A stretch of 64,000 bases of DNA from Pyrinomonadaceae bacterium (GTDB lineage: Bacteria > Acidobacteriota > Blastocatellia > Pyrinomonadales > Pyrinomonadaceae), in assembly GCA_044867735.1 (NCBI GenBank), contig JBIOVO010000286.1, positions 1,666 to 65,665 of the forward strand. The letters are read 5' to 3'. Within the stretch, counting starts at the first letter, position 1, and each line of letters starts with the position of its first letter. A program made the position numbers and the translations under genes. Shown here piece by piece: positions 4,854 to 21,144 of the stretch. Under the pieces are notes generated by a model. That model was not told the DNA's origin, made no database searches, and saw only the letters and a list, made by a program, of their open reading frames with translations.

Positions 4854-4890
4854 GGGTTTGTAATCGTCAAAAGAAGTTCACTGTCCAGCG

Positions 4891-5147: not shown

Positions 5148-5246
5148 CTGTCCAGCCGATCTTCCAGCGAAGCGAAGCGGCAATAATGCGCGACTCTTGA
5201 ATCTCGAGCGTGAGACTCAAGTCATCACAAACTCATTCGTGTTTAC

Positions 5247-5573: not shown

Positions 5574-5667
5574 CGTTAATCCTCCAAGAGAGTTACTAGA
5601 GTGGTCGTTCATTGAGTTTGAACGACTTCGTTCGAAGACTGAGATCATGACTGGTGACTGCCGCGAA

Positions 5668-5972
5668 GTGCTCCGGAGGAGCAAGAGCCGAGGTGCTCCG
5701 GAGGAGCACAATGTTTATAGCGTTAATGCATTAAGGGTCTGCGCGCTCCAGCGGAGCGCAATGTACTTTGGCACCCACATGCCGCTCCTACGGAGCGGGA
5801 TACATCCATGGATTTGGGGGCTATAAACATGTTGCTCCTTCGGAGCAAGACCCCGAGGTGCTCCGGAGGAGCACGATGTTTATAGCGTTAATGCATTAAG
5901 GGTCTGCGCGCTCCAGCGGAGCGCAATGTACTTTGGGCACTTGGGGGCTAAGTTGTTGCTCCTCCGGAGCAA
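5668..5972. repeat. Array of GCTCC-NNN-GGAGC hairpin units (REP/MITE-like): one solo hairpin, one complete ~156-bp element (5693-5848) and one truncated copy (5858-5972)
   Basis: The complete element is bounded by gtgctccggaggagcacaatgtttatagc (5693-5721) and ggctataaacatgttgctccttcggagcaa (5820-5848), which are inverted. Inside it are the hairpins GCGCTCC-agc-GGAGCGC followed by aatgta, and CCGCTCC-tac-GGAGCGG. The segment 5685-5775 is repeated almost exactly at 5850-5940, with one a/g difference in the TIR. Confidence 0.75.
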
Positions 5973-6015
5973 AGGCCTCGGACAAAGTCGGTGACCGACT
6001 TCTCTTATCGACGGC

Positions 6016-7344
6016 TCACGTCGAGCTCGTTACGGTTGCTCCTGATTGCCGAACCAGCGGCTGCAACTGTCCGTAGCTCATCGTTCGCCAGAGCCACTCC
6101 ACCGGGCCCATCTTGAATCGCTTCAACCACAAGGTACTCAGCATCACTTGCGCGGTATAGATCACGAGAGCGATCAGTACGCACGTTGCCGGACCGGTAC
6201 GCCCGATCAGCCCGCCACCATAGAAGATCACCAAACACAGCACCGTCTGCATGAGGTAATTGGTAAGCGCCATCCGTCCCAGCGGAGCGAGCAACGACAG
6301 TCGTCGCTGCCAGGCCGAACGCTGGTACAACAATGTCAGTGTCGCCACGTAAAATACGCAGAGCGCGAGCGAACTGATCTCCGTCGGTAGTATTAAGAGG
6401 ATCCGCCACACTGAAGTGGGAGCGATGATGTCGGCACGCAACAGCTCTGTCCCGACAACAAAGAGCCCGCTGCTCACCAACCCGATCGGAAGACTCCACC
6501 AGAAAAGCTTCCGAAAGAACGCGAGGTTCGCGGCTACGTCATGTAACAGCCGTCTTCGCCCGGCATAAAAGCCCAGCAAGAACCGGCCTGCCGTCAAGGG
6601 GAAAATGTATAGCAGGCCCACCAAGCCGGAGAAATAGATCTTGGCATTCCATTGCAGGATGTCAGCGTAACCACCATTGGCGAACGCTGCTAATACCTGA
6701 TCGGATAATTGCCTGCGCGTTTCACGTAATATCGTGTCACCTGACCCAGGTCCCAACATCGAGGAGGCTAAAGCCTGAAGCCCTAGTGCCATGATCATCA
6801 AAAGAATCGCGACGAAGCTCACGCCTACAGCGCTCAAAAGCAACGTTCGTCCCTTGCTGCGGACAAAAGGAATCAGGAACAGACCGCACAACGCATACAC
6901 GTGCAGGACGTCGCCGTGCCACAACAACAGCAGGTGAACTACTCCGATAAAAAACAGGATGAGCTGTCGTCGCGAATAGAAGACCGCGATGTTGCCGCCC
7001 TTTTCTTCGGCCCGCATTACTTGAACTGCGAAGCCGATTCCAAAGAGCAGCGAGAAGAGCAGGATGAACTTCTTGTCGATGAAAAAACGAATGAAGTAAA
7101 AGGCCACTGAGTCGATCGGCGACGCCGTTAACTCAAAGCCGCGTTCCGGGGAAACAAAAGTAAAACCACTGAATGACCAAAAGATGTTGGCGAGCAGGAC
7201 GCCAAAGAGCGCAAAGCCTCGCAGCACATCGAGCAATGGTATGCGGTCGGATGAAGCGATCGGATCGAACGGTATAGCGCGTTGGAGATCAAGGTCTTTC
7301 GATATGGCCGGTTGGCCGAAGAGGTTGTTAACAGCTTGTGACAT
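6016..7344 (-). CDS. DUF418 / YeiB-family polytopic membrane protein
   Basis: This 442-aa protein shows the family hallmarks LLDVLRGFALFGVLLANI, LLLWHGDVLHVYALCG, GRMALTNYLMQTVLC and GPVEWLWRTMSYG, and has many hydrophobic segments. An AAGGAG sequence lies just upstream of the ATG at 7344. Confidence 0.85.
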   Translation of the reverse strand: MSQAVNNLFGQPAISKDLDLQRAIPFDPIASSDRIPLLDVLRGFALFGVLLANIFWSFSGFTFVSPERGFELTASPIDSVAFYFIRFFIDKKFILLFSLLFGIGFAVQVMRAEEKGGNIAVFYSRRQLILFFIGVVHLLLLWHGDVLHVYALCGLFLIPFVRSKGRTLLLSAVGVSFVAILLMIMALGLQALASSMLGPGSGDTILRETRRQLSDQVLAAFANGGYADILQWNAKIYFSGLVGLLYIFPLTAGRFLLGFYAGRRRLLHDVAANLAFFRKLFWWSLPIGLVSSGLFVVGTELLRADIIAPTSVWRILLILPTEISSLALCVFYVATLTLLYQRSAWQRRLSLLAPLGRMALTNYLMQTVLCLVIFYGGGLIGRTGPATCVLIALVIYTAQVMLSTLWLKRFKMGPVEWLWRTMSYGQLQPLVRQSGATVTSST

Positions 7345-7467: not shown

Positions 7468-8184
7468 TTAGGTGATCCAGTTGTCAGCGACAACATCGGC
7501 ATTCGATTCAAGTTCCGGAGGCATCAGCAGGCTCTGAGCAATCTCGCCACTCTCAAGAAAGAGTTCAACGGCCGGGTAGCGAATGGATTCAACGGTGTGA
7601 TTGGTGTGATAGATAAGTCCGCCGCCCGCCGGCAGCCCGATACCGTTAACCACACCGTCGCAAAGCTGGAGCGATTGGCGCAGGTTTCGCCATGCGTTCT
7701 TCTCGTCGTGCGCGTCGACCACAAAGGGGACCAACTTAAAGGTCTCGAAGAGTCGATTCGTCGTCAGTTCGCCTGCCGGCCATCCGAGCCAGCCCAGTTG
7801 GACCGACCCGGCGGAGATACCAATCAGCACTGCGCCGTCCAGATATCTTTTGACCACCGCCTCGCGCACGCCGTTCTTCTTAAAAGCTTCCCAACCTTTC
7901 TGCACGTCTCCGCCTGCCAGGAGGATCAGATCCGCTTCATCGAGAAAGGATGCTTCACCTTTAGATAACTGCGAATTGATCATGCAGCAGTCGCGAACTC
8001 CGATGCCCTCCATCGCCCCTTGAAAGAGTGAGTAGAAAGCCGGGTCGTCGCCATTTGAGGCGCCGATATACGCAGCTTTAGGCTGACGCCCCTCGATCAG
8101 GTTTCGAACTGAATCGAGAAACAATCCGTCTTCGTCCTTCCAGAAAAGCAACTGGCTATCGGCAAAGAGGTAGATCGGTTTCAA
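7468..8184 (-). CDS. Peptidase family S51 (dipeptidase E / cyanophycinase-like) protein
   Basis: This 238-aa protein contains ADLILLAGGDVQKGWEAF...GAVLIGISAGSVQLG...LVPFVVDAHDE. That matches the PepE pattern IVGGGNTFxLL...YIGWSAGAN...INPHF, including the Ser nucleophile context. The start codon is TTG at 8184, 22 nt after the upstream stop. Confidence 0.7.
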   Translation of the reverse strand: MKPIYLFADSQLLFWKDEDGLFLDSVRNLIEGRQPKAAYIGASNGDDPAFYSLFQGAMEGIGVRDCCMINSQLSKGEASFLDEADLILLAGGDVQKGWEAFKKNGVREAVVKRYLDGAVLIGISAGSVQLGWLGWPAGELTTNRLFETFKLVPFVVDAHDEKNAWRNLRQSLQLCDGVVNGIGLPAGGGLIYHTNHTVESIRYPAVELFLESGEIAQSLLMPPELESNADVVADNWIT

Positions 8185-8206: not shown

Positions 8207-11080
8207 TCAAGCCTCGCTTACGAGAACCTTTTCCGTCAAGGCAGCGACTGTCGGCGCTTCATAGAACGCACGGATCGAAAGCGTGCACCCGAATGCAGCA
8301 CGAATGCGAGTCACTAATCGAATCAACATCACGCTGTCGCCTCCGAGATCAAAGAAGCTATCGTCCAAACTAACGCGAGGCACGCCCAGGGCCTGAGCAA
8401 ACAGTGTGCAGAGTAGCTCCTGCTCAGGCCCACTAGGGGCACGCCCACCGGCGCCACTGCCATATTCCGGCGCCGGCAATGATTTGCGATCGAGCTTGCC
8501 GTTCGGTGAAAGCGGAAATTCCTTCAGTTTTACGACCGCGCTCGGCAACATGTAGTCGGGCAACTTCGCCTTTAATCTCTGCCACACTTCCTGAACGATC
8601 TCTCGATCGTCCTGCGGAGCCGGAACCAATTCCTCAACTGTCATGCTGGAAAACAAGCTCTTGTAAAAAGCTGATCCCTGGAATACTCGCTGCACGTAAG
8701 GCAGCCTATAGAAGAACGACTTCGTGTTCGCGTTGCGAAACAAAATGCGGCCTTCGATCGAATAGTCCATGCGCAGCGGATGCCCCTTGCTGGGACGCCT
8801 GACGCTTTTGCCGACAATGCGGTCGCCGGCCTCGACTTTCAGGCCCGGCACAAATGCGGGAACAAATACCGGAGCATCTGTCGTGTAGACGGGATCGATC
8901 TGCTCAGGATCTCCAAAGAGCTCGAGGCTCAGAACGAAACCACAAAGCAGCGCGTCGCGATTAATCGTCAACTCAATTGCATGCTCGGTCGCTTGCGTGC
9001 TGTCTTGATGAGGATCATGACAATCGATCTGTTCAAACACAGATGATCCGGAAATCACACTCTCGGCGGGAAGTTGATGGACGCGCACTCTCAGATCAAA
9101 CGGGTAGCCGACCGCTGAAAAGATTTCCGGTACGTGCTCAAACTCTGCTCGCTCAATCAGACTCTCGGGTAATTCCACCGCTGATATCTGAGTGACGCAA
9201 CGCTGCGGATAAAAGATCGCATCCCGGCGAATCACTGGTCGCAGTTTTTGCAGGCAAACTTCCAGGCCCTTTCCGCCGCCGATATCTCCCAGAAAATCCG
9301 TTATGCACAGATCAATCGGATCTTCGAGACTCAGCACTTCCCCATTCACCGTAAATGCAATCACGCGTTCAGGTTCGTGCTCAAAAATTGTTTGCTCAGT
9401 CGTGGCCAGGGCCTCTAAGTTAGCTTCCGCGACATAAACACGTTTCGCTCCCGCATCAAGACACGCTTTGAGAAGAACGTTCTCCTTGTCAGGGCACACG
9501 ATCAGGACAGTCTTGGCCCGCGCGCTCTCGATTATGGTTTGATAAGAAGGATGAACTCGCGAACCGCTTTCGCACGAAGACGCGACTGGCGTCAGGTCAT
9601 CTTGATAATCGTGAATTGCCGGCGAGAACCAGGTCGTCTCCGAAGACGCTGCCGGCGTTTGCTTACTGGCGGAATCAGCAATCACATAGGCAACGAGGCG
9701 TTGCTGCCCAGGCTGGTCCTCACGAACAGTGACCGCTGCTTCGGCTATTCCGGGACAGCTTTCAAGCGCGGTTTCGATCTCGCGCAGTTCAATTCGGTGT
9801 CCGCGAATCTTTACCTGCTGATCAATGCGGCCGGCGAACTCCAGGTTTCCATTAACGTCCCATCTTGCCAGGTCACCGGTTCGATATAAGCGTTTGCCCT
9901 GCTCCTCACTGAAACAGTCTGGAACAAATCGCTCTGCCGCGAGCTCCGGCCGGTTCAAATAGCCGCGAGCCAATCCTACGCCGCCGATGTACAACTCTCC
10001 GACCTCAGTGAGCAACGGTTCCATCTCATCGTTCACTACGTACAGTTGCACATTCTCGAGCGCCGTCCCAATCGGGGCCACTGTGAGGTGTCTATGTACA
10101 CTCCTGCCCGCGCAGATGATTGCGCCTTCCGTCGGTCCGTACAGGACATGGACCTGAGCATTCGGGAAGACCTCTCTCATTTGATCCAGCAGTTGTATTC
10201 CGACCGCCTCGCCACCGACAAAGATCCGGCGCAATTTTCCGGCGTCAGAGTTGTGCTCCTTCATCCAGTCAACAACCTGCCGCATGAGTGTGGGGACGCA
10301 GTGCAAGAGTGTGAGACTTGAGAAGCTTGCAATCAATTGTTCCACATCAAGGATGTCTTTTTGATCCCAGATCGCTACCGTCCCACCGACACACAAGAGG
10401 TTGCACAATTCAAACAGCGAGATGTCGAAGGAAAAGGATGCAAGACATGGGATCACGTCGGTGTGCGTAAAGCCGAATCTCTCCCGGCTTGCGGCGAGTG
10501 TGTTCGCGAGGGCGCGGTGCTCGACCATCACACCTTTGGGGTTGCCTGTCGAGCCCGAAGTGTAAATTACGTAGGCAAGGTTTTCGCCGTCGATGGTCGG
10601 TTCCGGATTGTCTGTAGACTCGTGGGCAATTTCATTCCACGCATCGTCAAGGCAGATCGTAGTTGAGGCGGCGCCGGCCAGCTTTGCTTTGGTGTCTCGG
10701 CTGGTCACGATAACCGACACCTGCGAGTCCGCCAACATGTATCTGAGTCTTTCGGAGGGATAGTCCGGATCGAGCGGAACGTAGGCTCCGCCCGCTTTGA
10801 AGATTGCGAGCAACGTCACTAACGCTTCTGAGTTTCGCTCGAGGCAAACTCCTACTCGACGCTCCGCGTCTACTCCGAATCTCTTCAAGTAATGGGCCAA
10901 CTGATTGGCTTGCTGATTTAACTGAGCATACGAGAGTTGCCGATCGCCAGAGACAACCGCCGTCGCAAAGGGATCATTCTCGACCTGCTGCTCGAAGAGT
11001 TCGTGGAACAGCAACGTCGAAGAGAGCGCCGTTTGGGCCAGATCGGGATGATCGATCACTATCGCTTGAAGTTGTTGCAT
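8207..11080 (-). CDS. Stand-alone NRPS didomain: A (interrupted between A8 and A9 by a ~365-aa PRMT-fold-like insert with a degenerate SAM motif) - T
   Basis: A-domain motifs are LSYAQLNQQANQLAHYL, LAYVIYTSGSTGNPKGV, SFSFDISLFE, LYGPTEGAIICA, YRTGDLARW and KIRGHRIELREIE. After the insert come LPDYMLPSAVVKLKEFPLSPNGKLDRKSL (A9/A10) and the carrier motif FFDLGGDSVMLIRL. The pocket code read by eye is DIFHFGLIIK. Confidence 0.9.
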   Translation of the reverse strand: MQQLQAIVIDHPDLAQTALSSTLLFHELFEQQVENDPFATAVVSGDRQLSYAQLNQQANQLAHYLKRFGVDAERRVGVCLERNSEALVTLLAIFKAGGAYVPLDPDYPSERLRYMLADSQVSVIVTSRDTKAKLAGAASTTICLDDAWNEIAHESTDNPEPTIDGENLAYVIYTSGSTGNPKGVMVEHRALANTLAASRERFGFTHTDVIPCLASFSFDISLFELCNLLCVGGTVAIWDQKDILDVEQLIASFSSLTLLHCVPTLMRQVVDWMKEHNSDAGKLRRIFVGGEAVGIQLLDQMREVFPNAQVHVLYGPTEGAIICAGRSVHRHLTVAPIGTALENVQLYVVNDEMEPLLTEVGELYIGGVGLARGYLNRPELAAERFVPDCFSEEQGKRLYRTGDLARWDVNGNLEFAGRIDQQVKIRGHRIELREIETALESCPGIAEAAVTVREDQPGQQRLVAYVIADSASKQTPAASSETTWFSPAIHDYQDDLTPVASSCESGSRVHPSYQTIIESARAKTVLIVCPDKENVLLKACLDAGAKRVYVAEANLEALATTEQTIFEHEPERVIAFTVNGEVLSLEDPIDLCITDFLGDIGGGKGLEVCLQKLRPVIRRDAIFYPQRCVTQISAVELPESLIERAEFEHVPEIFSAVGYPFDLRVRVHQLPAESVISGSSVFEQIDCHDPHQDSTQATEHAIELTINRDALLCGFVLSLELFGDPEQIDPVYTTDAPVFVPAFVPGLKVEAGDRIVGKSVRRPSKGHPLRMDYSIEGRILFRNANTKSFFYRLPYVQRVFQGSAFYKSLFSSMTVEELVPAPQDDREIVQEVWQRLKAKLPDYMLPSAVVKLKEFPLSPNGKLDRKSLPAPEYGSGAGGRAPSGPEQELLCTLFAQALGVPRVSLDDSFFDLGGDSVMLIRLVTRIRAAFGCTLSIRAFYEAPTVAALTEKVLVSEA
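8570..9670 (-). other. Insert in the stand-alone A domain (about residues 471-837): paralogue of the PRMT-fold insert of the terminal NRPS, with the glycine-rich SAM motif lost
   Basis: VLIVCPDKENVLLKACLDAGAKRVYVAE aligns to VVDIGTGRDAIQARFCAEAGAKRVYAID in the 22935-37295 protein. LCITDFLGDIGGG aligns to VSVSEVVESIGGA, and IFYPQRCVTQISAVELPE aligns to VIIPERSVTKIVAVSLPD. The GxGxG positions read CPDKE. Confidence 0.6.
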
Positions 11081-11120: not shown

Positions 11121-11256
11121 ATCGACAGGATTAACAGAACCAACAGGATGTTTGCTTGTCTTGTTCAATCCTGTAATCCTGTCTAAGCATCGACGGGATT
11201 AACAAAACCAACAGGATGTTTTCTTGTCTTGTTCAATCCTGTAATCCTGTCTAAGG
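11121..11256. repeat. Tandem direct repeat, 2 x 68 bp (about 94% identical), each unit a nested hairpin
   Basis: Unit 1 (11121-11188) is atcgacaggattaacagaaccaacaggatgtttgcttgtcttgttcaatcctgtaatcctgtctaagc. Unit 2 (11189-11256) differs at 4 positions. Within each unit GACAGGATTA pairs with TAATCCTGTC and CAGGAT pairs with ATCCTG. The repeat starts directly after the halogenase stop codon and ends 40 nt before the A-T start codon. Confidence 0.85.
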
Positions 11257-12747
11257 CTAGACCAGGACGGCCTCAGGAACTGTTTCACGCCATCTGAAAC
11301 CATCTGCTGAAGGAATGAGACCACCGTCAAAGAGCGGCTGCTCCTCATCGCCCATGGCTCCGGCGTGGGCTTGTCGCTGCATCTGCGTCGCTTCCTCAAC
11401 CAGGCTATCAAGAAAAGCTTCTTTCTCGCCCGAGAAATAAGGAGCTGCGCTATCGTTACTGTTCTGCAGTTGCTCTAACTCACCTTTGATTCTTTCGACT
11501 TGATCGCTTTCCACGATCAGCTCTTCCTGATGCAAGGTAGAGACACCAGCTACCAAACTAACAAATGCTTGTTGATTCGATTGCTGCGTATTGAGGACCT
11601 TGCGTGCGTTCCAGAAGTAGGAGTCTTCACTCTGATGCATGTCGTAAAACGAGGTGAGAAACTCGTAGAAATTCCTGAATTCGCGACGATATCTTTTTTC
11701 GAATTCTTCGAAGCAGCGAGTCTCGTCCATGCCATCGCTGAGAATGGAATTGATCGAACGCGCGGCCAGCAGAGCGGAGTAGGTTGCCAGATGTACGCCG
11801 GAAGAAAAAACCGGATCGATGAAGCAGGCGGCATCGCCTACCAGCACCAGACCAGGCACCCAAAACCGCTCATTGGAATAGGACCAGTCTTTGCGAACGC
11901 GTATTTGACCGTACTGTCCTTCGGTGACGCGCGTCGCCTTGGACAGCATTTCAGATATCTCCGGGCACGAGGCGATGAAGCGGGCCATAGCTTCCTCATG
12001 ACCAGCCTTAAGGAGACTCGCGTTTTCCTTTGACACGACGGCGCCGACGCTGGTGAGCGTAGCGGAAAGCGGAATATACCAAAACCATCCATCCTTAAAA
12101 GCTGCGCAGAAAATGTTGCCGTCACGTGGTGGAGGAAACCGATACCCGTTCTCGTAGTATCCAAACAGCGCCAGGTTCTGAAAGAAATTCGAATAGATTC
12201 GTTCGCCAACTTTTCTGTGAATCTGACTCGTATTGCCGGAAGCATCGACAATGTATTTTGCGTTGGCTTTACGAGCATTGCCGCCGTCATCCAGGAACTC
12301 AACTCCAGTGGCCCGGCCCGCGTCGAAGATAACGTCCTTCACTGAATGCTGCTCGCGCACGTCCACTCCATTGTGAACTGCATTCTTCAGGAGCATGTGA
12401 TCGAACTTTGATCTTTCAACCTGGTACGCATATGCCTGCGGTGTGGTAATCTCGGAGGCGGTGCTGAAGTGGAACGTCCAGGGCTCAGGATTGGTGCCCC
12501 ATTTGAATGTGCCGCCAAGCTTTCGCACGAACCCGGCCTGCTTCAACTCTTCCGACAGTCCGAGGATCTTGCAGACTCCGTGAATCGTCGCCGGCAATAA
12601 CGACTCGCCGATTTGGTAACGAGGGAACGTCTCACGCTCCAGCAGCAGTACTCGATGATTTTGCATTGCGAGTATCGTGGCCACGGTTGATCCCCCTGGA
12701 CCACCACCAATAACGACCACATCAAAATCTTCAACACTTGAATTCAT
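11257..12747 (-). CDS. Flavin-dependent halogenase (PltA/CndH-like, carrier-protein-substrate type)
   Basis: This 496-aa protein has the FAD motif VVIGGGPGGS, the motif GWFWYIP (WxWxIP), FIDPVFSSGVHLA and the conserved Lys context GFVRKLGGTFKWG. An AGGAGAA ribosome-binding site lies upstream of the ATG at 12747. Confidence 0.85.
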   Translation of the reverse strand: MNSSVEDFDVVVIGGGPGGSTVATILAMQNHRVLLLERETFPRYQIGESLLPATIHGVCKILGLSEELKQAGFVRKLGGTFKWGTNPEPWTFHFSTASEITTPQAYAYQVERSKFDHMLLKNAVHNGVDVREQHSVKDVIFDAGRATGVEFLDDGGNARKANAKYIVDASGNTSQIHRKVGERIYSNFFQNLALFGYYENGYRFPPPRDGNIFCAAFKDGWFWYIPLSATLTSVGAVVSKENASLLKAGHEEAMARFIASCPEISEMLSKATRVTEGQYGQIRVRKDWSYSNERFWVPGLVLVGDAACFIDPVFSSGVHLATYSALLAARSINSILSDGMDETRCFEEFEKRYRREFRNFYEFLTSFYDMHQSEDSYFWNARKVLNTQQSNQQAFVSLVAGVSTLHQEELIVESDQVERIKGELEQLQNSNDSAAPYFSGEKEAFLDSLVEEATQMQRQAHAGAMGDEEQPLFDGGLIPSADGFRWRETVPEAVLV

Positions 12748-12824: not shown

Positions 12825-15413
12825 TCAGGCTTCCACGGCGACGCAGCGGAATTCACTCGTGTAACGATTCCCCTGTGCATCGTGAAGCCACGTTTCGTGT
12901 GGTTGCGGCAGCATCTCCGTCACGCTGAGCAGCGCGCCGGGTTCTCCCTCCTCGTTCATCCGCCGCACAAACTTCGAAAGGATGTCGACATAGATAGGAC
13001 TCCCAAAATCGACGTAGAAGGGCTTAACCTCAATCGGCACTTTGACGAAGACAAAGCGCGGCAGGCCTTGTGAGCGAGCCCATCTTCTCGCTGCGAGGAA
13101 ACGCTCTGACTCATCTTTTGCTTTAGCAAACTTCAACTCTTTCGATTCGAAGCGTCGCGTTTCACGAGCTACTACAAGATTGTCAAAGTTGATGCGCGGG
13201 TTGTAACGTCCCGAACCAAAGAGCCCGAACCGTTGAATGACTTGTCCCACCATCACCGAGGCGCAAGCCTCGAGGATCTCGAAACTCTCCTTGCCATCGC
13301 GCGTGCGCAACCTCAGTCCACAACTGGTGTCCTCGACAACCAGCGAACTGATCGGCAAACTTTTTTCTTCGGGCAATGCATAGGTGTCTCTGTTAACTAA
13401 GAGCCGGAAATCATCCTTTGAATTGATCATCGAATAGGCGCGCGAGAAGGCGTACTCCTTGGTGCCAACCGGTATGAGCTGTGGCTCGGGCATGTCTTTC
13501 CGATGCCACCTGATCAACTCGTCCGGGTCAGGATGCTGGGCCACAAAACAGGAGGCTTTCAACGTGTTGGCGCCGACGTGCACTTCTCCCATCACGAGTT
13601 CATAGTCACCGCGCTGAATGGCCTCAGCGCTGGAGGCCACAATCATGATGTCAGGACTATGATGACCGGCCATGGTCCAACCGGGAGAGGGAGCGTCAAA
13701 TATTTCCTGCAACGGTCCGCGAAGTTCTTCACACGAGTACCTGATCCGCCGCTGTCCCGGGGTGATAGCCAACAGTGTGGCCCAGCGCTGATGGAATTCT
13801 GTGATGGCCGATTCAATGGCCGGCGCTCGGTGCTCTCGGTCGCCGAAGATGGTCTTGAGCTTGTTTAAGTAAGTGATGGCATCAATTGTCGGCGAGCCCG
13901 TGCGCCTGACGAGATCGCAATAGAGTTCGCGCAATCCGTGACGGTAACGTTGGGCCGCCTGATATGTCAGCCAGCGGGCACTGGTCAAAAGCAGCGAAAG
14001 CGGCGGACCGAGCTTTTGCAGAAACTCCGAACCTGCTTCGATCTCTATGTCGCGACGGCAGTCTTCATAAATCAACGTTCTTCCGGCATACGTCTCGCCA
14101 TGCCTTCTCGTTGGTGAAGCGCCCGTAAGACGGGTGAAGGTCGTTTCGAATCCAGCGAGCGCCTGGTCCAGCCGTTCAGGATCGTCGGCAACCTCGACGA
14201 CGAGCGAGCGTGCCTGTTCAAGTTCATTCAGCACGCCGAGGCATTGAGCGCGCAAGGACAAATCGTCGATGATCTCGAGCTTGTGACGCAGGTATTCTTC
14301 TGGTTTGAGTTGCAGCGGCACTGTGAAGTCCCACGCAATGACCTCAAGCCGTTGCAGCTCATCGATCAATGCAAAGATCTCTCTCTCGTTTCGGAAACCG
14401 AGTTTAGTTATTCCCAAAAGACCGACGGCGATCTGCCGGGCCGTGCGCCGCCCATCACAGGCATGCATTACAAACGCCTGTTTGGGTGTGATCTTTATCG
14501 TTTGCTGATCGGCAAAGTGAAGGTTTGTTCCATCCAGGCGGATGTAAGGCATCCGTCGCGGGGCCAGCCAGGGATCCAGTGCCCGTCCCTGCGCCAACGT
14601 CTCTGCTATTCGATCGATACACCAACCTTCAAAACGTACACTGCGTTTGGCGAGGAGAGTCTCGCCTGGCCTTACTTCCACCGAGTGGCCATCTTCCAGA
14701 AACTTTCCCCAACCCATTGGACCAAAGAACCCGATGGTGTCGTTCTTTACGCAATAGCGTTGCAAATAGCTGGCGACCATCTCTTCATGTTGTCGTTGCT
14801 TGGAGCCACGAGGACCGGAGCCGGCAGTTTTGCGCAAGAGTGAATTGATGCTGGTATGTATCGCCTGACGATTCTGCCAGGTCACCGCACAACGAAAGCG
14901 GCTTTCGGCGATCAGATCGCGGATGGCCTGTGAAGTCTCTTCAGTTGCGGCAAGGAAACTTTCACGATAATTCTTCGCGAGCGGATCGAGTTGGGAACGA
15001 GCGTCGCGCAGAATCTCTAAACGTTCCTGGCCTGAACTGCTCGAGTTTAAGGGCTTCGGTAGCTTTCCCTTCTTTAAGGTCTGGATGGCTCGCAAAAGCG
15101 GCTCTCGGTCTTGCGGCTCGGCTGCTTCCAGATCGCTGCGCAGTGCGGTGAGTGTCTTATCCAAAAGCTGTTCCGAGTGCTGCTCGGCGTCGAGTAAAAC
15201 ATCGGCAGCCGCAACACACTGCGGATCTGAAAGTCTGAGCACTTGTTCGGACGAGAATCCCGCCCCTCTGACACCAAAACAACGCCAGAGCTTCCAATTA
15301 CCACCCGGAAGGGGAATCAAGTGATCGGTCGGCGACTCGACAGCATCGAGTCCGGGATAACCAACCGGCGGCGGCGCCGCGACTGATTCTGTTATGTTAG
15401 TGGCTTCATTCAT
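12825..15413 (-). CDS. Lantibiotic-dehydratase (LanB) N-terminal-domain family protein lacking an elimination domain (split-LanB / PEARL-like)
   Basis: This 862-aa protein contains YLQRYCVKNDTIGFFGP, comparable to the NisB segment YKRSYLRSTPFGLF. It also contains YELVMGEVHVGANTLKASCF, comparable to ILGDIVGNNNLGGASGRF. GLPRFVFVKVPIEVKPFYVDFGSPIYVDIL corresponds to IPKEFYIVNGDNKVYLSQKNPLDMEIL of NisB, the segment that precedes the elimination domain. Here the ORF ends about 45 aa later. Confidence 0.75.
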   Translation of the reverse strand: MNEATNITESVAAPPPVGYPGLDAVESPTDHLIPLPGGNWKLWRCFGVRGAGFSSEQVLRLSDPQCVAAADVLLDAEQHSEQLLDKTLTALRSDLEAAEPQDREPLLRAIQTLKKGKLPKPLNSSSSGQERLEILRDARSQLDPLAKNYRESFLAATEETSQAIRDLIAESRFRCAVTWQNRQAIHTSINSLLRKTAGSGPRGSKQRQHEEMVASYLQRYCVKNDTIGFFGPMGWGKFLEDGHSVEVRPGETLLAKRSVRFEGWCIDRIAETLAQGRALDPWLAPRRMPYIRLDGTNLHFADQQTIKITPKQAFVMHACDGRRTARQIAVGLLGITKLGFRNEREIFALIDELQRLEVIAWDFTVPLQLKPEEYLRHKLEIIDDLSLRAQCLGVLNELEQARSLVVEVADDPERLDQALAGFETTFTRLTGASPTRRHGETYAGRTLIYEDCRRDIEIEAGSEFLQKLGPPLSLLLTSARWLTYQAAQRYRHGLRELYCDLVRRTGSPTIDAITYLNKLKTIFGDREHRAPAIESAITEFHQRWATLLAITPGQRRIRYSCEELRGPLQEIFDAPSPGWTMAGHHSPDIMIVASSAEAIQRGDYELVMGEVHVGANTLKASCFVAQHPDPDELIRWHRKDMPEPQLIPVGTKEYAFSRAYSMINSKDDFRLLVNRDTYALPEEKSLPISSLVVEDTSCGLRLRTRDGKESFEILEACASVMVGQVIQRFGLFGSGRYNPRINFDNLVVARETRRFESKELKFAKAKDESERFLAARRWARSQGLPRFVFVKVPIEVKPFYVDFGSPIYVDILSKFVRRMNEEGEPGALLSVTEMLPQPHETWLHDAQGNRYTSEFRCVAVEA

Positions 15414-15478
15414 TTGAGAGTGTCCATCGCTCGAACGAGGTTTGCACGAAAAGTCGTGACCATTGATATCGAGGATTT

Positions 15479-15638
15479 TTGCTCCGGAGGAGCAACATGT
15501 TTATAGCGCCCAGTTCCCTTAGGTACGCCGCTCCGTCAGGAGCGGAATGTGATTTGAGCGCCGACTACATTGCGCGCCGCTGGAGCGCGGAGTTCTGAGC
15601 GGCGTAAGGGCTATAAACATCGTGCTCCTCCGGAGCAC
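15479..15638. mobile_element. Complete ~160-bp copy of the GCTCC-NNN-GGAGC hairpin element, inverted relative to the copy at 5693-5848
   Basis: The termini are ttgctccggaggagcaacatgtttatagc (15479-15507) and ggctataaacatcgtgctcctccggagcac (15609-15638). The reverse complement shows the same module order as the 5693-5848 copy: TIR, GCGCTCCAGCGG-type hairpin followed by aatgta, CCGCTCC-n-GGAGCGG hairpin, then TIR. Confidence 0.75.
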
Positions 15639-15707
15639 TTCGCGACAGAGCCATCAAGCCCATAACCACTTCGTGCAACGCCGTCTCCAAACAGCAACCT
15701 CGGCAAC

Positions 15708-16520
15708 CTACCAGGTCACGGCCACACCTGGAGACATCCGCAAACCTTTGCTGACCACTTGGTTCAATGCGCCGGAAAGCTTTTGCAAAAGTTGATGTTG
15801 ATGGGAATGAATGAAGAAGTGATCCCCGTCAAACATCGTCAAATCAAATGGTCCGCTTGTTTGCTCTTTCCAGGCCTCGTAATCGTCCAGACTGACGTGC
15901 TCATCCTGCGTTCCGCCGTAGACCGTCATCGGACAGTCGAGGCGAGGTCCCGCTATGTATGAATAGGTCTGACAAACTTCGAAGTCAGCTCGCAGTAGCG
16001 GAATCATCAACTGCATCAACTCAGTATTGGCCAGCAACTCCTTTGGCGTTCCGTTCAGATCATTCAGGCTCTCGAGAAACTCCGGCTCGGGCAGGTGGTA
16101 GGTGTGCGGTTTATCGATTGCTACCTGCGGCGCGGTGCGACCGGCAACGAATAGATGGAGCGGCTGCACTCCATATTCGACCTTTAGCAGGCGCGTCAAC
16201 TCGAAGCTGATGATGGCGCCCATGGAGTAACCAAAAAAGCAGAAGGGTTTTTGAAGGTAAGGCAGTATCGCCGTGCTGATAGCTTTTACCAGCGGCGTCA
16301 CGTGGTGAAAGGGGGGATCTTTCATCCGATTACCGCGGCCCGGCAATTGGACCGGACAGACCTCCACCGTCGTGGGCAGCTGCGCCGCCCACTTGTGATA
16401 AAGCTGCGCGCTGCCGCCGGCGTAGGGAAAGCAAAATAAGCGCATCTTTGCCTGCGGATTAGGTTGAATGCATGTCAGCCAGGAACTGGTGACAGTCCTT
16501 TTTAAGAAGCTCGTATTCAT
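15708..16520 (-). CDS. Type II (editing) thioesterase
   Basis: Motifs are MRLFCFPYAGGSAQLY, the GxSxG motif FFGYSMGAIISFE, and the C-terminal FDGDHFFI His motif. I prefer the ATG at 16520, which has GAGGAG 9 nt upstream. The track start at 16712 adds 64 non-homologous residues and overlaps the upstream gene. Confidence 0.85.
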   Translation of the reverse strand: MNTSFLKRTVTSSWLTCIQPNPQAKMRLFCFPYAGGSAQLYHKWAAQLPTTVEVCPVQLPGRGNRMKDPPFHHVTPLVKAISTAILPYLQKPFCFFGYSMGAIISFELTRLLKVEYGVQPLHLFVAGRTAPQVAIDKPHTYHLPEPEFLESLNDLNGTPKELLANTELMQLMIPLLRADFEVCQTYSYIAGPRLDCPMTVYGGTQDEHVSLDDYEAWKEQTSGPFDLTMFDGDHFFIHSHQHQLLQKLSGALNQVVSKGLRMSPGVAVTW

Positions 16521-16660
16521 CGCAATTCGCTCCTCGGTATTTGTGTTTCGTCTTGAAGCTGCGGAGCTGAATGCATGACCACGCTGGGAGTAGCCGGCAG
16601 TGATCTTCGCAATTTCTTCGCGCTGGACGTTGGGAGGGTAGGTGGTCTCTTCAAAACCAC

Positions 16661-17464
16661 TCAGCCCATCGCCGCATTGCTGAGTGCCGACATGCCGATC
16701 CGTACTACGCAACTGATTACCCAGATCGAACCGGCGATGGCCGTGGCCTTGGCGGGAGAAATACGGGCAACTTTATGCAATCCAATGATTGCCAGGACCA
16801 ACCCGTAAATAGCAAACACATCAATCGAACTAACGGCGGTTGTCAGAATCGGATGAGCAGCGGAATCGACGAATACGCCCAGGTTGGCATGTACCAATCC
16901 CGTTCCCGCTCTTGCCAGGTCAATATCATCGGGAGACTTGAGAAAGAGGACCACGATATTTCCGAATAGTGCCAGAATTTCCGGCGGGAAAGACGAATAG
17001 ACCCAAACCGATAGTGCCTGGCGATAACCGATGCTTCCTCCAAAAGCCAGGACACCGAGCAGGTAGAGGGCGCCACCGCCGGCGAACACGATCGTTAGAT
17101 TGATGATCGGAGAGATATATCCAATCGCTTTCATCACCGGCTTGGTCTGCATCTCAATGATTTGCTCTTTCTGCTCCGGCGTGATGTTGGTGCCGCTGCG
17201 TTCCAACTGAGCTCGCAGGATGTTGTCGACGCCGAGGCGCTGATAAATGAGGGCCGAGGTGAAAGACAAGGTCACCACGATGAAGCAAGCCGCCAACAGG
17301 AACCGCGGTTGCTGCCGGAATGATTCGAAGACCCGGGCGGGTTCGAAAAATATTCCGCTCAGGCTGCCGATTGCGGAAGGCGCCTTGTCGTCCGAGACCG
17401 CTGGTGCAGCCACACCGCCCCCCGCGTAAACTGGAATGGGTTGCGCGTTTTTCAATTCATTCAT
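16661..17464 (-). CDS. Yip1-domain-like integral membrane protein
   Basis: This 267-aa protein has an N-terminal soluble stretch, then GIFFEPARVFESFRQQPRFLLAACFIVVTLSF, and about five hydrophobic helices. A GAGGAGAG ribosome-binding site lies upstream of the ATG at 17464. The family call rests on overall pattern only. Confidence 0.55.
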   Translation of the reverse strand: MNELKNAQPIPVYAGGGVAAPAVSDDKAPSAIGSLSGIFFEPARVFESFRQQPRFLLAACFIVVTLSFTSALIYQRLGVDNILRAQLERSGTNITPEQKEQIIEMQTKPVMKAIGYISPIINLTIVFAGGGALYLLGVLAFGGSIGYRQALSVWVYSSFPPEILALFGNIVVLFLKSPDDIDLARAGTGLVHANLGVFVDSAAHPILTTAVSSIDVFAIYGLVLAIIGLHKVARISPAKATAIAGSIWVISCVVRIGMSALSNAAMG

Positions 17465-17587: not shown

Positions 17588-17824
17588 CTAATTAATCGCG
17601 CCGGAATGTAGTCCAGCCGCTTCCATTTTTCTCCGCAGGCTTAGTGGTCTCATATCGGTCCAGACCTCTTTGATGTAGTCGAGACAATCAGCCTTCGGAC
17701 CGGACTTGCCGGCGTCGCGCCAACCGAGCGCGTTGTCTCGATGGGCTGGCCAAATCGAGTATTGTTCTTCGTGATTCAGGACCACTTTGTAAATGGTGTT
17801 ATCTTCTCTTTCTTCTCTTGGCAT
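17588..17824 (-). CDS. mbtH: MbtH-like protein
   Basis: This 78-aa protein contains [52 protein letters not shown], including the three signature Trp residues. An AAGGAGAGG ribosome-binding site lies upstream. Confidence 0.95.
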
Positions 17825-17946: not shown

Positions 17947-18732
17947 CTAAGTCCAGCGGGTCAAAATAACTTCCCGCTGAAAAATTCGAACTGCAAGACT
18001 TATGGACGCAAGGGCCAACAGGGCGAGGACGACGGCGGCCGCAAGTGCGATGAGCGGACTGAGGACAAGCACGCCCGCTAGCTGGGCAAAGAAAATCGAC
18101 AGGATTGGGATCACTGCGACAGCCGAGATTTGCTGCGCAGTTCGTGGATCGTTAACTCTTGATGAGATCGCCACCATCGCAGTCACCGCGATCAGCACGA
18201 TCAGCGGCACGCAGAGGATCAGGACGATAAACCATCCGGGACCCACTATGGCAACGAATACACGACGAGAAACCGTCACCAAAGACAACCCGGCTACGAA
18301 AATCACGCCGCATATCCAGGTGATGACAACTGCCGGGACTCCCGCAGCCAGACACTTGCCGAAGAGTAACTCTCCCGTAGTCACTGGTGTGGCGAGGACC
18401 GGTTCGAGCGTGCGAGCCACTTTCTCACCAATGATGCTGTAGGAGGCGATGATGCTGGGCACGATCAAAGGAATCAACAACATCATTACTGCAAAGGTCT
18501 GCCCGATGAAAGCTTGTTGCCGTTCCACGGGAGTCATGCCGAAAAACACTGGATTAGCCTTCTCGAACGGCATCGGCTGGTCAACAGACTCGGGCATATA
18601 TTGAACGACGAGAGTGATAATGACCGGAAGAACAGTCATCAGGATAGGCATAAGCGAGATGCCCAACAAGAGTCCTCGTTGGCGTTTTAATTCGAGCCAC
18701 TCTCTTCGCAAAATCACAAGACTCTTTTTCAT
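17947..18732 (-). CDS. ABC-2-type transporter permease
   Basis: This 261-aa protein has six hydrophobic segments. Its ATG overlaps the ATPase stop codon as ATGA (18729-18732). Confidence 0.7.
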   Translation of the reverse strand: MKKSLVILRREWLELKRQRGLLLGISLMPILMTVLPVIITLVVQYMPESVDQPMPFEKANPVFFGMTPVERQQAFIGQTFAVMMLLIPLIVPSIIASYSIIGEKVARTLEPVLATPVTTGELLFGKCLAAGVPAVVITWICGVIFVAGLSLVTVSRRVFVAIVGPGWFIVLILCVPLIVLIAVTAMVAISSRVNDPRTAQQISAVAVIPILSIFFAQLAGVLVLSPLIALAAAVVLALLALASISLAVRIFQREVILTRWT

Positions 18733-19691
18733 GTTAGTGATTGCTTATTCCGGTGTTTGCGCACCAGTCTCAAATAGACTTCTTCGAGCGACGGCTTTAC
18801 CTGCTCAACGTATTGAATGCGAGCCCCGGACGACACCAGTCTCTCCAGAACAAATTGGTTCTGCTCATCCGGATCGTCGAGCCGAATTAACAACGCATGG
18901 TCCTGCGCTTCGACCCCAGTAACGAAAGGCAGCTCGCGCACGATCGGGATCCAACGTTCGGGATCGTCGTTCATGCGAATCCGCGTGCCGCGCCCGAAGA
19001 GTTCGTTGCGCAAATTGGTCGGGCTGTCGAGCCGTAGCAATCGTTGCTTGAAGATGCAGACCAGGTCGCATAGTTCGTCGACTTCCGGCAGGTTATGTGT
19101 CGTCAAAAAGATCGTGCGACCACCTTCGCGCAGATCCTTGATGAAATCGCGGACCATGCGAGCTGTTTCCGGATCGAGGTTGGCTGTCGGCTCATCCAGA
19201 AAAAGCACTGAGGGTTCATGAAGTAACGCGCGAGCGATGGCAAGCTTCTGTCGCATTCCTTTTGAGAGACTACCGACGTCTTCGTGACGGCGATCCCAAA
19301 GTCCAAGCATGCGCAGGTAGCGTTCGACTTGCTGAGCGGCGCGAGTCGCATCCAGGTCATAAAGTTGCGCGAAGAAGAACAGGTTTTGCCAGGGACTCAG
19401 CCGCTCATAAAGTCCCGGCGTCTCGGTAAGGATCCCGGTGGAGCGATGCACGGCATCGTTCTCAGCTCCGAGGCGATGGCCGGCGACGGTCGCGCTCCCG
19501 CTGGTGGTCGCAATCAAGGCGGTCAGGAGTCGCACAGTTGTCGTTTTGCCCGCCCCATTGGGACCGATAAAACCGAACACGCTGCCCGTCGGCACCTGTA
19601 GTGTCAGGTTGTCGACAGCAATGCGTTCGCCAAAGGCGCGCGTCAGTCCCACAGTCTCAATAGCGTTCACGATGTTTTCGTCTCTATCCAC
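18729..19691 (-). CDS. ABC transporter ATP-binding protein
   Basis: Motifs are Walker A GPNGAGKTT, signature LSKGMRQKLAIA, Walker B VLFLDEPTANLD and the H-loop FLTTHN. The listed start is GTG at 19691. An in-frame GTG seven codons downstream is an alternative start. Confidence 0.9.
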   Translation of the reverse strand: MDRDENIVNAIETVGLTRAFGERIAVDNLTLQVPTGSVFGFIGPNGAGKTTTVRLLTALIATTSGSATVAGHRLGAENDAVHRSTGILTETPGLYERLSPWQNLFFFAQLYDLDATRAAQQVERYLRMLGLWDRRHEDVGSLSKGMRQKLAIARALLHEPSVLFLDEPTANLDPETARMVRDFIKDLREGGRTIFLTTHNLPEVDELCDLVCIFKQRLLRLDSPTNLRNELFGRGTRIRMNDDPERWIPIVRELPFVTGVEAQDHALLIRLDDPDEQNQFVLERLVSSGARIQYVEQVKPSLEEVYLRLVRKHRNKQSLT

Positions 19692-19741
19692 AGATTACGC
19701 CGATTGATTAATAGCCTCTGTGTAATCTGTGTAATCTGTGG
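19688..19741. repeat. Palindrome spanning the antiporter stop codon and the ABC-ATPase start codon
   Basis: On the minus strand CCACAGATTAC...(loop)...GTAATCTGTGG. The 3' arm contains both the antiporter TAA stop (19695-19697) and the GTG start at 19689-19691. The 5' arm is part of a tandem TGTGTAATC x2 repeat that encodes the odd antiporter tail RSTDYTDYTEAINQSA. Confidence 0.6.
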
Positions 19742-20963
19742 ATCGCAAATAAATTAGATTAAAAAGAGGAGTTGCCAGCAGCGTTGTGAGTATAGTCATC
19801 ATTACCATGATGGTAAACAAACGCGGCGTGATGATTCCCTTCTCCAGTCCAATATTAAGGATGATCAACTCCATCAACCCGCGAGCGTTCATCAACGCTC
19901 CGATAGCCATCGCATCTTGCCGGGTTTCGCCATTAAGCCTCGCTGCCATGTAACACGCAACGCCCTTTCCAAGACAAGCGCACAAGATGACCAGCAAGGT
20001 GATGCCCAACAAGTACCAACTCGAAACCAGGCCGATGCTTGTGTTCAAACCCGAGTAGACAAAAAACAGTGGCGCGAGAAACGACTTCGTGATCGGCTCG
20101 AGTACACGTCGCAGCTCCGTTGATACCAAGCCTCGCGGCATAGCTATACCGAGAACGAACGCACCAAAGACGGCATGGATCCCTATCACATCGGTCACCC
20201 ACGCGCAGATCATCAACAGCATTAGGACGAACGTCAGCGTCGAGCCGCTGACGCCTCCATCCAGATCCACTTTCTTTTCCAGTGAAACCAACAGACGCTT
20301 GCCGGCAGTCAGAGTCAGGATCGTATAAACTCCGCCGCACCCGATCGCCAGCAGCGCCAACGTCGGATTACCGCTAAAGGTCGCCAGCATGATTGCTAAG
20401 ACACACCAGGCTGCGGCATCGTCCGCCGCACCGGCTGCAAGGACCATCGTCCCCAACGTAGTTCCCGTCAGACCGCAGTCATAAATGATTCTGGCGAGAA
20501 CCGGAAACGCCGTGATTGCCATCGCGGCGCCGGCAAACATCGCCGCTTGCCACGCCGTGACGCGCTCAGTGAAAAAACCACCTTCCTGGACCAGATACAG
20601 CGACAACAAAGCACCCAGCGTGAATGGTACCAATATTCCCGTCAGCGACACGCTTGCAGCGCTGCGTGCTCGTTGTTTCATCAGTTGGGCTTGAAATTCA
20701 AGGCCAACCAGGAACATGTAAAGGACCAAACCCACCTGACTAACAACGTAGATTATCGGCAATGAGGCTTTGGGAAAGATTTGCGCCTGAATGCCGGGCG
20801 CGAACCAACCGAACAACGATGGTCCCATCAACACTCCGGCAACCATTTCCGCGACCACTGCCGGCTGCCCCAACCGTCGGGCAATCGCGCCGACGGTCTT
20901 GCAGATGCCCAGAATGAACGCGACCTGGAAGAAAAAATGAAATGACAGTTCGAAGTTTGTCAT
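19695..20963 (-). CDS. Cation:proton antiporter (CPA/Kef-NapA-type Na+/H+ exchanger family)
   Basis: The N-terminus is MTNFELSFHFFFQVAFILGICKTVGAIARRLGQPAVVAEMVAGVLMGPSLFGW, with about 12 hydrophobic segments. I trimmed the start to the ATG at 20963, because the track start at 21035 lies inside the inverted repeat at 20984-21093. Confidence 0.8.
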   Translation of the reverse strand: MTNFELSFHFFFQVAFILGICKTVGAIARRLGQPAVVAEMVAGVLMGPSLFGWFAPGIQAQIFPKASLPIIYVVSQVGLVLYMFLVGLEFQAQLMKQRARSAASVSLTGILVPFTLGALLSLYLVQEGGFFTERVTAWQAAMFAGAAMAITAFPVLARIIYDCGLTGTTLGTMVLAAGAADDAAAWCVLAIMLATFSGNPTLALLAIGCGGVYTILTLTAGKRLLVSLEKKVDLDGGVSGSTLTFVLMLLMICAWVTDVIGIHAVFGAFVLGIAMPRGLVSTELRRVLEPITKSFLAPLFFVYSGLNTSIGLVSSWYLLGITLLVILCACLGKGVACYMAARLNGETRQDAMAIGALMNARGLMELIILNIGLEKGIITPRLFTIMVMMTILTTLLATPLFNLIYLRSTDYTDYTEAINQSA

Positions 20964-20983
20964 TGGGTCAGTACCACTTTCGT

Positions 20984-21093
20984 AACAGCGGGGGCAAGCC
21001 CCTCTTCCTGACCTGCACGTCTCTAGTGACGCCAACTATTTCAACGAACCAAACGAAAGTCGCAGTTAGGAAGAGGGGCTTGCCCCCGCTGTT
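20984..21093. repeat. Perfect 26-bp inverted repeat with a 58-bp spacer
   Basis: aacagcgggggcaagcccctcttcct (20984-21009) pairs with aggaagaggggcttgcccccgctgtt (21068-21093). Each arm holds a GGGGC-aa-GCCCC mini-hairpin. The repeat lies between the SyrD-like exporter stop codon and the antiporter start codon. Confidence 0.8.
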
Positions 21094-21144
21094 CCGTTGC
21101 GAACCCAGCGAATCAGTGAAGGCGAAGTTGGAAAGGCGGCGTTG

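Follow-up and report, generated by a model that had tools for sequence, protein, structure and literature searches.

Peptide aminoacyl-tRNA ligases (PEARLs) and the LanB-type dehydratases bind the aminoacyl-tRNA with shared residues, and in both an Arg/Phe pair stacks an adenine (PMC11117183; PMC11962472; PMC11212132). In the phosphorylation triad, which is D542, E801 and R803 in TglB, the Asp and the Arg are found in PEARLs only; the split LanBs have Tyr and Leu in these places, and the lack of co-occurrence with the elimination domain PF14028 is a published criterion for PEARLs (PMC11117183; PMC11962472; PMC11212132). Within nonribosomal peptide (NRP) pathways, SnaE was shown, by inactivating its gene in a heterologous host, to attach Thr to a free carboxylate on a ureido-peptide of nonribosomal origin (Yu & van der Donk, ACS Cent Sci 2024, PMC11212132), and it was named the founding member of the NRP-pathway PEARLs (PMC11212132). 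In the sna cluster a condensation (C) domain with the signature EHHxxHDG makes the ureido linkage and reverses the chain, which yields the acceptor carboxylate (PMC11212132). A literature search returned no characterised NRP-pathway PEARL besides SnaE. Here we analyzed a stretch of 64,000 nucleotides from a Pyrinomonadaceae bacterium (contig JBIOVO010000286.1, positions 1,666 to 65,665; the window in the following), which contains nonribosomal peptide synthetase (NRPS) genes and, at 12825-15413 on the minus strand, a gene for a LanB-like protein. We consider it likely that this protein is a PEARL of the assembly-line clade to which SnaE is related, and that it acts on the free carboxylate of a small molecule made by the NRPS cluster of the window.

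The open reading frame (ORF) begins with an ATG and encodes 862 amino acids (aa). A first-pass annotation made from the sequence had described it as a LanB-type enzyme lacking the elimination domain on the basis of three segments, all of which are present exactly in this frame: YLQRYCVKNDTIGFFGP at aa 216-232, GEVHVGANTLKASCF at aa 609-623 and LPRFVFVKVPIEVKPFYVDFGSPIYVDIL at aa 784-812. The protein does end shortly after the last segment, with 50 aa remaining and not the about 45 aa given there; 6 aa remain after the E-x-R motif. The profile search proposed in that annotation was carried out, and the Pfam family PF04738 (Lant_dehydr_N) matched aa 171-812 over profile positions 3-649 of 649 with an E-value of 6.7e-33, which is far above chance. 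PF04738 is the only Pfam match of the protein, PF14028 does not match it, and none of the NCBIfam models does, so that the description as a LanB-type protein without an elimination domain holds.

The structural comparison was carried out as well. The AlphaFold2 model of the enzyme is confident (pLDDT 85.8, pTM 0.83), and its best match in the PDB, determined with Foldseek, is the stand-alone glutamylation enzyme TbtB (6EC8; E-value 8e-26, TM 0.65/0.69), followed by MibB, GodF, MadB and NisB. The full-length LanBs NisB, MibB and MadB align over their N-domains only, and their target-normalised TM is about 0.5, since their elimination domains have no counterpart in the model. A single-sequence phmmer search of the PDB yielded no match for the window protein, and a profile of the family aligned TbtB over about 90 residues only. 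The split LanBs TbtB (thiomuracin) and GodF (goadsporin) and the full-length NisB, MibB and MadB, which are the best PDB matches, have the fold of the window enzyme, and they also have the Arg/Phe adenine pair, the Glu that is E851 in TbtB and the Arg/Lys residues binding the tRNA 5'-phosphate in common with it. They differ in that they are without the Asp and the Arg of the PEARLs, use Glu-tRNA and no ATP and always work together with a PF14028 eliminase, either in cis or encoded close by.

The class of the enzyme was read from a residue map, an alignment of the window protein and five members of its family with SnaE, TglB, BhaB1, BhaB7, AmmB2 and TbtB. A chimeric query assembled from published alignment fragments retrieved these six reference proteins from the protein database; it did not retrieve MibB, and NisB lay outside it. 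The TglB residues R10, D542, E564, E801 and R803 correspond to R49, D588, E610, E854 and R856 of the window enzyme, and D558, E813 and R815 of BhaB7 align to the same D588, E854 and R856. Residues binding the tRNA and the adenine are present as well: Y205, R208, R429, R715 and F755 of BhaB7 correspond to Y216, R219, R445, R750 and F789, the adenine pair R715/F755 being R743/F783 in TbtB. TbtB carries L853 opposite R856 and E553, not an Asp, opposite D588. In a 26-sequence alignment of the family, and likewise in 95-97 homologous ORFs from genome loci, neither the PEARL triad nor the residues for the tRNA vary. Since the tail past the E-x-R motif comprises at most 62 residues in all of these ORFs, no family member hides an elimination domain.

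The N-terminal motif points in the same direction. The first-pass annotation had taken YLQRYCVKNDTIGFF as a LanB landmark, which needs correcting: it is the PEARL/SnaE form QRxxxKNDTIGFF, and the corresponding sequences are YAQRYFTKNDTIGFF in SnaE and YAQRFCSKNDTSSFF in TglB. NisB, MibB, SpaB, EpiB and TbtB have the dehydratase motif R-x3-(R/K)-(S/T)-(S/T)-P-(F/Y) in the published alignment; the window enzyme has QRYCVKNDTIGFF (with K223-N-D-T226) and, at the other end, E854-F-R856, with an Arg where dehydratases have Leu or Val. Its C-terminus, YTSEFRCVAV, is nearly identical to that of SnaE, YTSELRFVAV. Judged by D588, E854 and R856, the tRNA and adenine residues and the N-motif, the enzyme is a PEARL and not a split LanB or one half of a dehydratase. 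Of the two options left by the first-pass annotation, a split LanB or a PEARL, only the second is thus retained.

SnaE is the nearest characterised relative of the window enzyme (BLASTP: 30% identity, 790 aligned positions, E-value 9e-102). The E-values for TglB and BhaB7 are 5e-51 and 5e-36, and the similarity to TbtB, the most distant reference enzyme, is marginal (0.007). In a neighbour-joining tree rooted on TbtB, which was computed without bootstrap and is indicative only, the 92 sequences of the family group with SnaE in a single clade, and TglB, BhaB1, BhaB7 and AmmB2 fall outside it. SnaE (ADD43711.1, from the sna NRPS-polyketide synthase (PKS) cluster of Stackebrandtia nassauensis, which makes threopeptin) resembles the window enzyme in being a protein of about 850 aa with PF04738 only, encoded inside an NRPS cluster, and the signature blocks VASY(L/A)QRY..KNDTIGFF and YTSE(F/L)R.VAV are nearly identical in both. 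The two clusters are also alike in having MbtH, a stand-alone thioesterase and ATP-binding cassette (ABC) exporters near the PEARL gene, and no precursor peptide, eliminase or LanC. In contrast to the window enzyme, SnaE is missing some 90 residues of the helical region at the N-terminus and contains a Pro-rich insert of about 100 aa. The PEARLs of pathways to peptides that are ribosomally synthesized and then post-translationally modified (RiPPs), namely TglB (3-thiaglutamate) and BhaB1/BhaB7 and AmmB2 (pyrroloiminoquinones), have the fold, the triad Asp and E-x-R, the transfer Arg and the residues binding the CCA end and the adenine in common with the window enzyme, and they all are without an elimination domain. 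However, they are only 20-25% identical to it, lie outside the clade that it forms with SnaE, and act on ribosomal scaffold peptides encoded adjacent to them; no such peptide is evident in the window.

To see how the gene is embedded elsewhere, a survey of the family was carried out. More than 1700 database proteins match the window enzyme at an E-value of 0.001 or below; the best 120 of these are all about 860 aa long with PF04738 only, and those with a named source come mostly from Pyrinomonadaceae and Herpetosiphonaceae. Among the relatives with a named source, the closest are 81-82% identical and come from metagenome-assembled genomes of Pyrinomonadaceae (Blastocatellia). In species-representative genomes at least 569 loci were found, distributed over Acidobacteriota, Chloroflexota, Myxococcota, Actinomycetota, Cyanobacteria, Gemmatimonadota and others. 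Co-occurrence with NRPS genes was counted in the 64 loci for which 12 kb of sequence or more was available: an adenylation (A) domain is encoded within 10 kb of the PEARL gene in 49 of them (77%) and a C domain in 47, whereas genes for a halogenase, a peptidase of family S51 and a Yip1 protein are each present in only two. Among the 45 family loci with flanking C domains, three have a ureido-type C domain with EHHxxHDG.

Two neighbourhoods are particularly close to that of the window. In L001, in which the PEARL is 76% identical, the full order is kept, with MbtH, Yip1, thioesterase, PEARL, halogenase, a stand-alone A domain with a thiolation (T) domain (A-T), S51 peptidase, a small protein and an NRPS with a fatty acyl-AMP ligase (FAAL). 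In L002 (56% identity) the order is an NRPS with thioesterase, exporters, MbtH, Yip1, thioesterase, PEARL, small protein and FAAL-NRPS; the halogenase, the A-T and the S51 peptidase are missing. Because L002 keeps the PEARL and the NRPS without this cassette, it is the assembly line that is conserved as the partner of the PEARL, rather than the genes for halogenation. The first-pass annotation had hinted that the halogenase links the gene to ammosamide-type pathways, and this hint is weakened by the same locus. NRPS or PKS genes are present in seven of the eight neighbourhoods annotated with Pfam (L001-L004 and L084-L087, sna included), and neither PF14028 nor LanC is found in any of the eight. 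MbtH and a stand-alone thioesterase lie beside the PEARL gene in the window, in L084 and in sna.

Several other loci of the family show individual arrangements. The PEARL gene of L086 (7948-12637) directly follows an SbnA/SbnB-like pair (PALP and ornithine cyclodeaminase) within an NRPS operon. Two tandem PEARL genes in L003 (10001-15237) adjoin genes for an S15 peptidase and a DDAH-like enzyme. In L004 (12568-18601), which is part of an 11-Mb Chloroflexia genome, about 6 kb without a called gene follow the PEARL gene, with ORFs of at most 260 aa; major facilitator superfamily (MFS) and MacB efflux genes flank this PEARL, and no NRPS is encoded within 10 kb.

In the window, the Pfam scans covered every substantial gene, and the genes of the cluster named here are all located on the minus strand. 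The terminal NRPS (22935-37295; Pfam and code) has 4786 aa and the architecture C-A(MT-like)-T-C-A(MT)-T-E-C-A-T-TE, MT, E and TE being methyltransferase, epimerization and thioesterase domains, and its module 2 has a Thr code. Four further NRPS genes are located upstream, at 37311-45086, 45202-53055, 53066-60814 and from 60811 to the edge of the window (64000); according to Pfam, the three complete ones each encode C-A-T-C-A-T-E and the rightmost, which is cut by the edge, A-T-E. A second NRPS gene at 3-4853, detected with tblastn and Pfam, starts with FAAL-T-C-A and runs off the left edge; it is 72% identical over 1465 aa to the downstream NRPS of L001 (tblastn) and 59% to the equivalent in L002. 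Since the left edge holds this FAAL-NRPS, the PEARL gene lies between an NRPS set that ends in a TE and an NRPS for lipo-initiation. The first 6000 positions contain no rRNA and no tRNA, and Pfam returned nothing for short plus-strand ORFs there. An ORF-poor region at positions 1-6000 was considered and rejected, as this minus-strand NRPS gene runs off the edge there.

The ureido signature EHHxxHDG is found in none of the 14 C/E active-site motifs of the five right-hand NRPS genes. These motifs are of the ordinary DCL (SFHHILLDGW), LCL (TMHHIVSDGW) and E (VCHHLVVDGVSW) types. Ureido chain reversal was rejected for the cluster as far as it lies in the window, as none of the C domains there carries EHHxxHDG. 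The specificity codes of the A domains are approximate, as the GrsA register was checked against known code positions only. They suggest Gly, Ala, Val, two unassigned (one of them possibly basic), Val, Gly, a DIFHFG type, Thr and again a DIFHFG type; for the FAAL-NRPS the code points to Gln, and that of the stand-alone A-T, DIFHFGLII, resembles aryl-glycine codes. No clear Asp or Glu module is found among the modules of the window with these approximate codes. The unusual code DIFHFG(G/A/L)I(M/I) is common to three A domains. It is odd that modules in 60811-64000 and in 37311-45086 with the approximate Gly code DILQWGLIW precede E domains, Gly being achiral.

The genes named as neighbours in the first-pass annotation, for a halogenase, a stand-alone A-T, a type II TE and MbtH, were all found, and its placement of the LanB-like gene among NRPS tailoring genes is correct. 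Directly upstream of the PEARL gene is that of the stand-alone type II TE (15708-16712; PF00975, E-value 7.9e-51), whose true start is probably downstream of the maximal-ORF start, because the orthologue in L001 has 270 aa; L001 and L002 have it in the same place, and the L020 locus has a thioesterase match too. On the other side is the gene of a flavin-dependent halogenase of 496 aa (11257-12747), which is CmlS/PltA-like (PF04820, E-value 8.9e-70; NCBIfam CmlS-like model, 9.5e-94, below the equivalog cut-off) and which is present in L001 and L020 and missing from L002. It is followed by the gene for the stand-alone A-T didomain (8207-11080; 957 aa; AMP-binding and PP-binding in Pfam), in which a methyltransferase-like insert of about 400 aa is located between A8 and A9. 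This insert (aa ~475-890) is 32% identical over 394 aa to that of module 1 of the terminal NRPS (aa ~953-1337), the two being paralogous. Both lie between A8 and A9; weak methyltransferase matches were obtained for the NRPS copy, and in the stand-alone A-T the glycine-rich S-adenosylmethionine motif has seemingly been lost (VLIVCPDKEN). Between the halogenase and A-T genes (11121-11256) a 68-nt unit is present in two tandem copies that are 94% identical. The simplest account of the halogenase, the interrupted A-T and the type II TE is a cassette that halogenates an aryl amino acid while it is tethered to a carrier.

Further along, a protein of 238 aa (7468-8184) belongs to peptidase family S51 and is dipeptidase E/cyanophycinase-like (PF03575, E-value 6.8e-10); it is kept in L001 and absent in L002. 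The DUF418/YeiB-family membrane protein gene at 6016-7344, located between the genes of the S51 peptidase and a conserved small protein, is probably an insertion that has nothing to do with the cluster, as it is absent from the otherwise syntenic L001. Upstream of the TE gene, the window encodes a Yip1/YknW-family membrane protein (16661-17464; PF04893, E-value 4e-17), which is kept in L001 and L002, and an MbtH-like protein of 78 aa (17588-17824), which was found by its sequence and whose orthologues in L001 and L002 match PF03621. An export block follows at 17947-22803 (Pfam), consisting of an ABC-2 permease, a DrrA-type ATPase, a Na+/H+ exchanger-family protein and a fused ABC transporter.

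Taking the relatives and the assembly line together, the window enzyme most likely amidates a free carboxylate of the cluster's lipopeptide, using ATP and an aminoacyl-tRNA. By homology to TglB, BhaB7 and SnaE, ATP bound in an ATP-grasp-like pocket would phosphorylate the free carboxylate of the small molecule, with R750 and F789 stacking the adenine and D588, E854 and R856 holding Mg-ATP and the carboxylate. The alpha-amine of the aminoacyl-tRNA would then attack the acyl phosphate, the 3' CCA end of the tRNA being held by Y216, R219 and R445 and R49 aiding the transfer. Finally, the tRNA ester would be hydrolysed, giving a product longer by one amino acid through an amide bond beyond the reach of the thiotemplate. 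A C-terminal carboxylate would fit the architecture of the line: the N-terminus is probably acylated owing to FAAL initiation, thioester-bound intermediates would have no free C-terminus, a ureido carboxylate and an acidic residue are not predicted, and the last NRPS ends in a TE, which may release the acceptor. The first-pass annotation had proposed tRNA-dependent chemistry on a thiotemplate product, and this is the likely role of the enzyme. Of the targets it offered, a carboxylate such as the one released by the TE fits; acylation of the Thr of module 2, which is dehydratase-type chemistry, is disfavoured because no eliminase was found in the window or in the eight neighbourhoods. Its view that no pathway type described so far has this combination is outdated, since the SnaE combination was published in 2024 (PMC11212132).

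Several points weigh against this assignment. The function of the window protein and of its close relatives is deduced from homology. SnaE, the sole NRP-acting PEARL that has been characterised, has an identity of only 30%, and homology was also the basis on which its mechanism was inferred; moreover, its authors state that NRP-acting and RiPP-acting PEARLs are not separable by sequence (PMC11212132). The window enzyme keeps a subdomain resembling the RiPP recognition element (RRE) and PqqD at aa ~295-365, as RiPP enzymes do, although SnaE aligns through the same region. Some family members are found at loci that have several PEARL genes and, within 10 kb, no NRPS. One of them is the Myxococcales locus L083 (5125-21330; also L062, L068 and L082), which has five paralogous PEARL genes for proteins of ~820-857 aa, has no NRPS domains within 10 kb of them and resembles the multi-PEARL clusters with ribosomal scaffold peptides (pearlins); family membership alone is therefore silent on whether a substrate is ribosomal or nonribosomal. 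The logic of the sna cluster, a ureido C domain, is absent in the window. That no module is specific for Asp or Glu is a soft statement, with approximate codes, two of them unassigned, and a line that is partly beyond the window. Unlike the short NRPS-PKS line of sna, in which the ureido C domain (EHHxxHDG) supplies the carboxylate for SnaE, the line of the window is FAAL-associated with at least ten modules, E and MT domains, an in-line TE and no such C domain; as far as the sequences tell, the substrate must differ from that of SnaE, and the substrate logic differs from that of the only characterised example.

Of the other explanations, the one that survives best is that the enzyme is a PEARL-type ligase with an acceptor other than the C-terminus of the released peptide, which we consider unlikely. 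The acceptor could be a free building block, for example a halogenated aryl amino acid freed from the stand-alone T domain by the type II TE, or a side-chain or vinylogous carboxylate, as in an amine transfer of the AmmB3/BhaB5 type. The gene order is consistent with this, as the PEARL gene has the type II TE gene directly upstream of it and the genes of the halogenase and the A-T directly downstream in the window and in L001, and matches to a TE and a halogenase are found in L020. In L085 (8364-12607), a Trp-halogenase gene overlaps the start of the PEARL gene by 4 bp in a PKS-NRPS cluster, PEARLs are described to act on non-C-terminal electrophiles (PMC11117183), and two A-domain codes are unassigned. 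However, L002 and most of the family loci combine the PEARL with an NRPS and have no halogenase/A-T cassette, and the modules of the window include no Asp or Glu code, as far as the approximate codes tell.

A canonical RiPP-type PEARL, working in a pearlin pathway that lies in or beside the NRPS cluster, is less probable still. Here the appended residue would be modified, for example halogenated, and then clipped off by the S51 peptidase. The RRE/PqqD-like subdomain would suit such an enzyme, even though SnaE, the nearest characterised relative, acts on an NRP and has an RRE-like region too, and a halogenase and a peptidase adjoin the PEARL gene as in the amm/bha and tgl pathways, although L002 has a PEARL without either of them. 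The multi-PEARL loci without an NRPS also agree with this explanation; the NRPS co-occurrence of 77% across phyla argues against it.

What would be required in addition is a scaffold peptide. The first-pass annotation had reported no LanC, no eliminase and no convincing precursor within the 64 kb, and the Pfam scans of all substantial genes, in which no LanC and no PF14028 protein was found, agree with it, as do the small ORFs of the intergenic gaps, none of which is precursor-like. Upstream of the PEARL gene is a gap of 294 bp (15414-15707) with palindromic repeats resembling repetitive extragenic palindromic (REP) elements, which it shares with 5688-5971; its ORFs are short and not conserved, and in L001 the gap measures 43 bp. 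Copies of the repeat (core TGCTCCGGAGGAGCA...ATGTTTATAGC) lie in both orientations at 5688-5971 and at 15479-15642, the latter set filling the unusually long gap, and the repeat is possibly a small element that is mobile or regulatory. As a precursor, the peptide-like strings of this gap were rejected, because they are translations of the palindromic repeat that is present elsewhere in the window.

The second candidate was a conserved protein of 92 aa without a Pfam match (5298-5573; core ...DYLYLQENFTVTDGIF...EWIEFC...), which accompanies the PEARL in several loci. Its homologues are encoded beside the PEARL gene in L002 and L014 and nearby in L001 and L003, and in L021 the homologue is fused to a larger protein. 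The presence of this ORF with a PEARL in five loci would speak for a RiPP pathway, but with its globular conserved core, its variable C-terminal tails and the fusion in L021 the protein is ill-suited as a scaffold with a defined C-terminus, and it was rejected as such.

Two broader proposals can be set beside these. An NRP or a building block released from its carrier might itself serve as a pearlin-like scaffold, to which the PEARL appends an amino acid that the halogenase and other enzymes tailor before the S51 peptidase clips or edits the product; in a less radical version, charged tRNA might elongate TE-released lipopeptides at the C-terminus independently of ureido chemistry. We regard the scaffold version as improbable. 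If it were true, it would amount to amino-acid-derived natural-product assembly on a scaffold made by a thiotemplate; the less radical one, if true, would be routine in hundreds of clusters in at least five phyla.

Glutamylation of Thr or Ser in the NRP by a split LanB with Glu-tRNA, with elimination occurring spontaneously or by an eliminase encoded elsewhere, is very unlikely, because in spite of the LanB glutamylation fold, the PF04738 match and a Thr-specific module in the terminal NRPS it is contradicted by R856 at the dehydratase Leu/Val position, by the PEARL-only D588, by KNDT in place of (S/T)(S/T)P(F/Y) and by the lack of PF14028 in the window and the eight neighbourhoods, TbtB also being the most distant of the reference enzymes.

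The PEARLs are not a new enzyme class, and their pairing with an NRPS was first described in 2024. The NRP-acting PEARLs are known from one studied case, SnaE, with a ureido-forming C domain as the source of the carboxylate, and the window enzyme is a member of a large, cross-phylum and essentially unstudied group of this NRP-pathway type. As the window and most of the at least 569 loci are without a ureido C domain, charged tRNA probably serves many assembly-line pathways in a second way. Predictions of NRPS products by collinearity will omit one residue in such clusters, and annotation pipelines will go on labelling them as lanthipeptide hybrids. Enzymes of the window type are candidate tools for ATP- and tRNA-driven C-terminal ligation on small non-ribosomal substrates, and the locus offers an entry point to the role of tRNA-dependent ligases in ordinary, ureido-free NRPS pathways.

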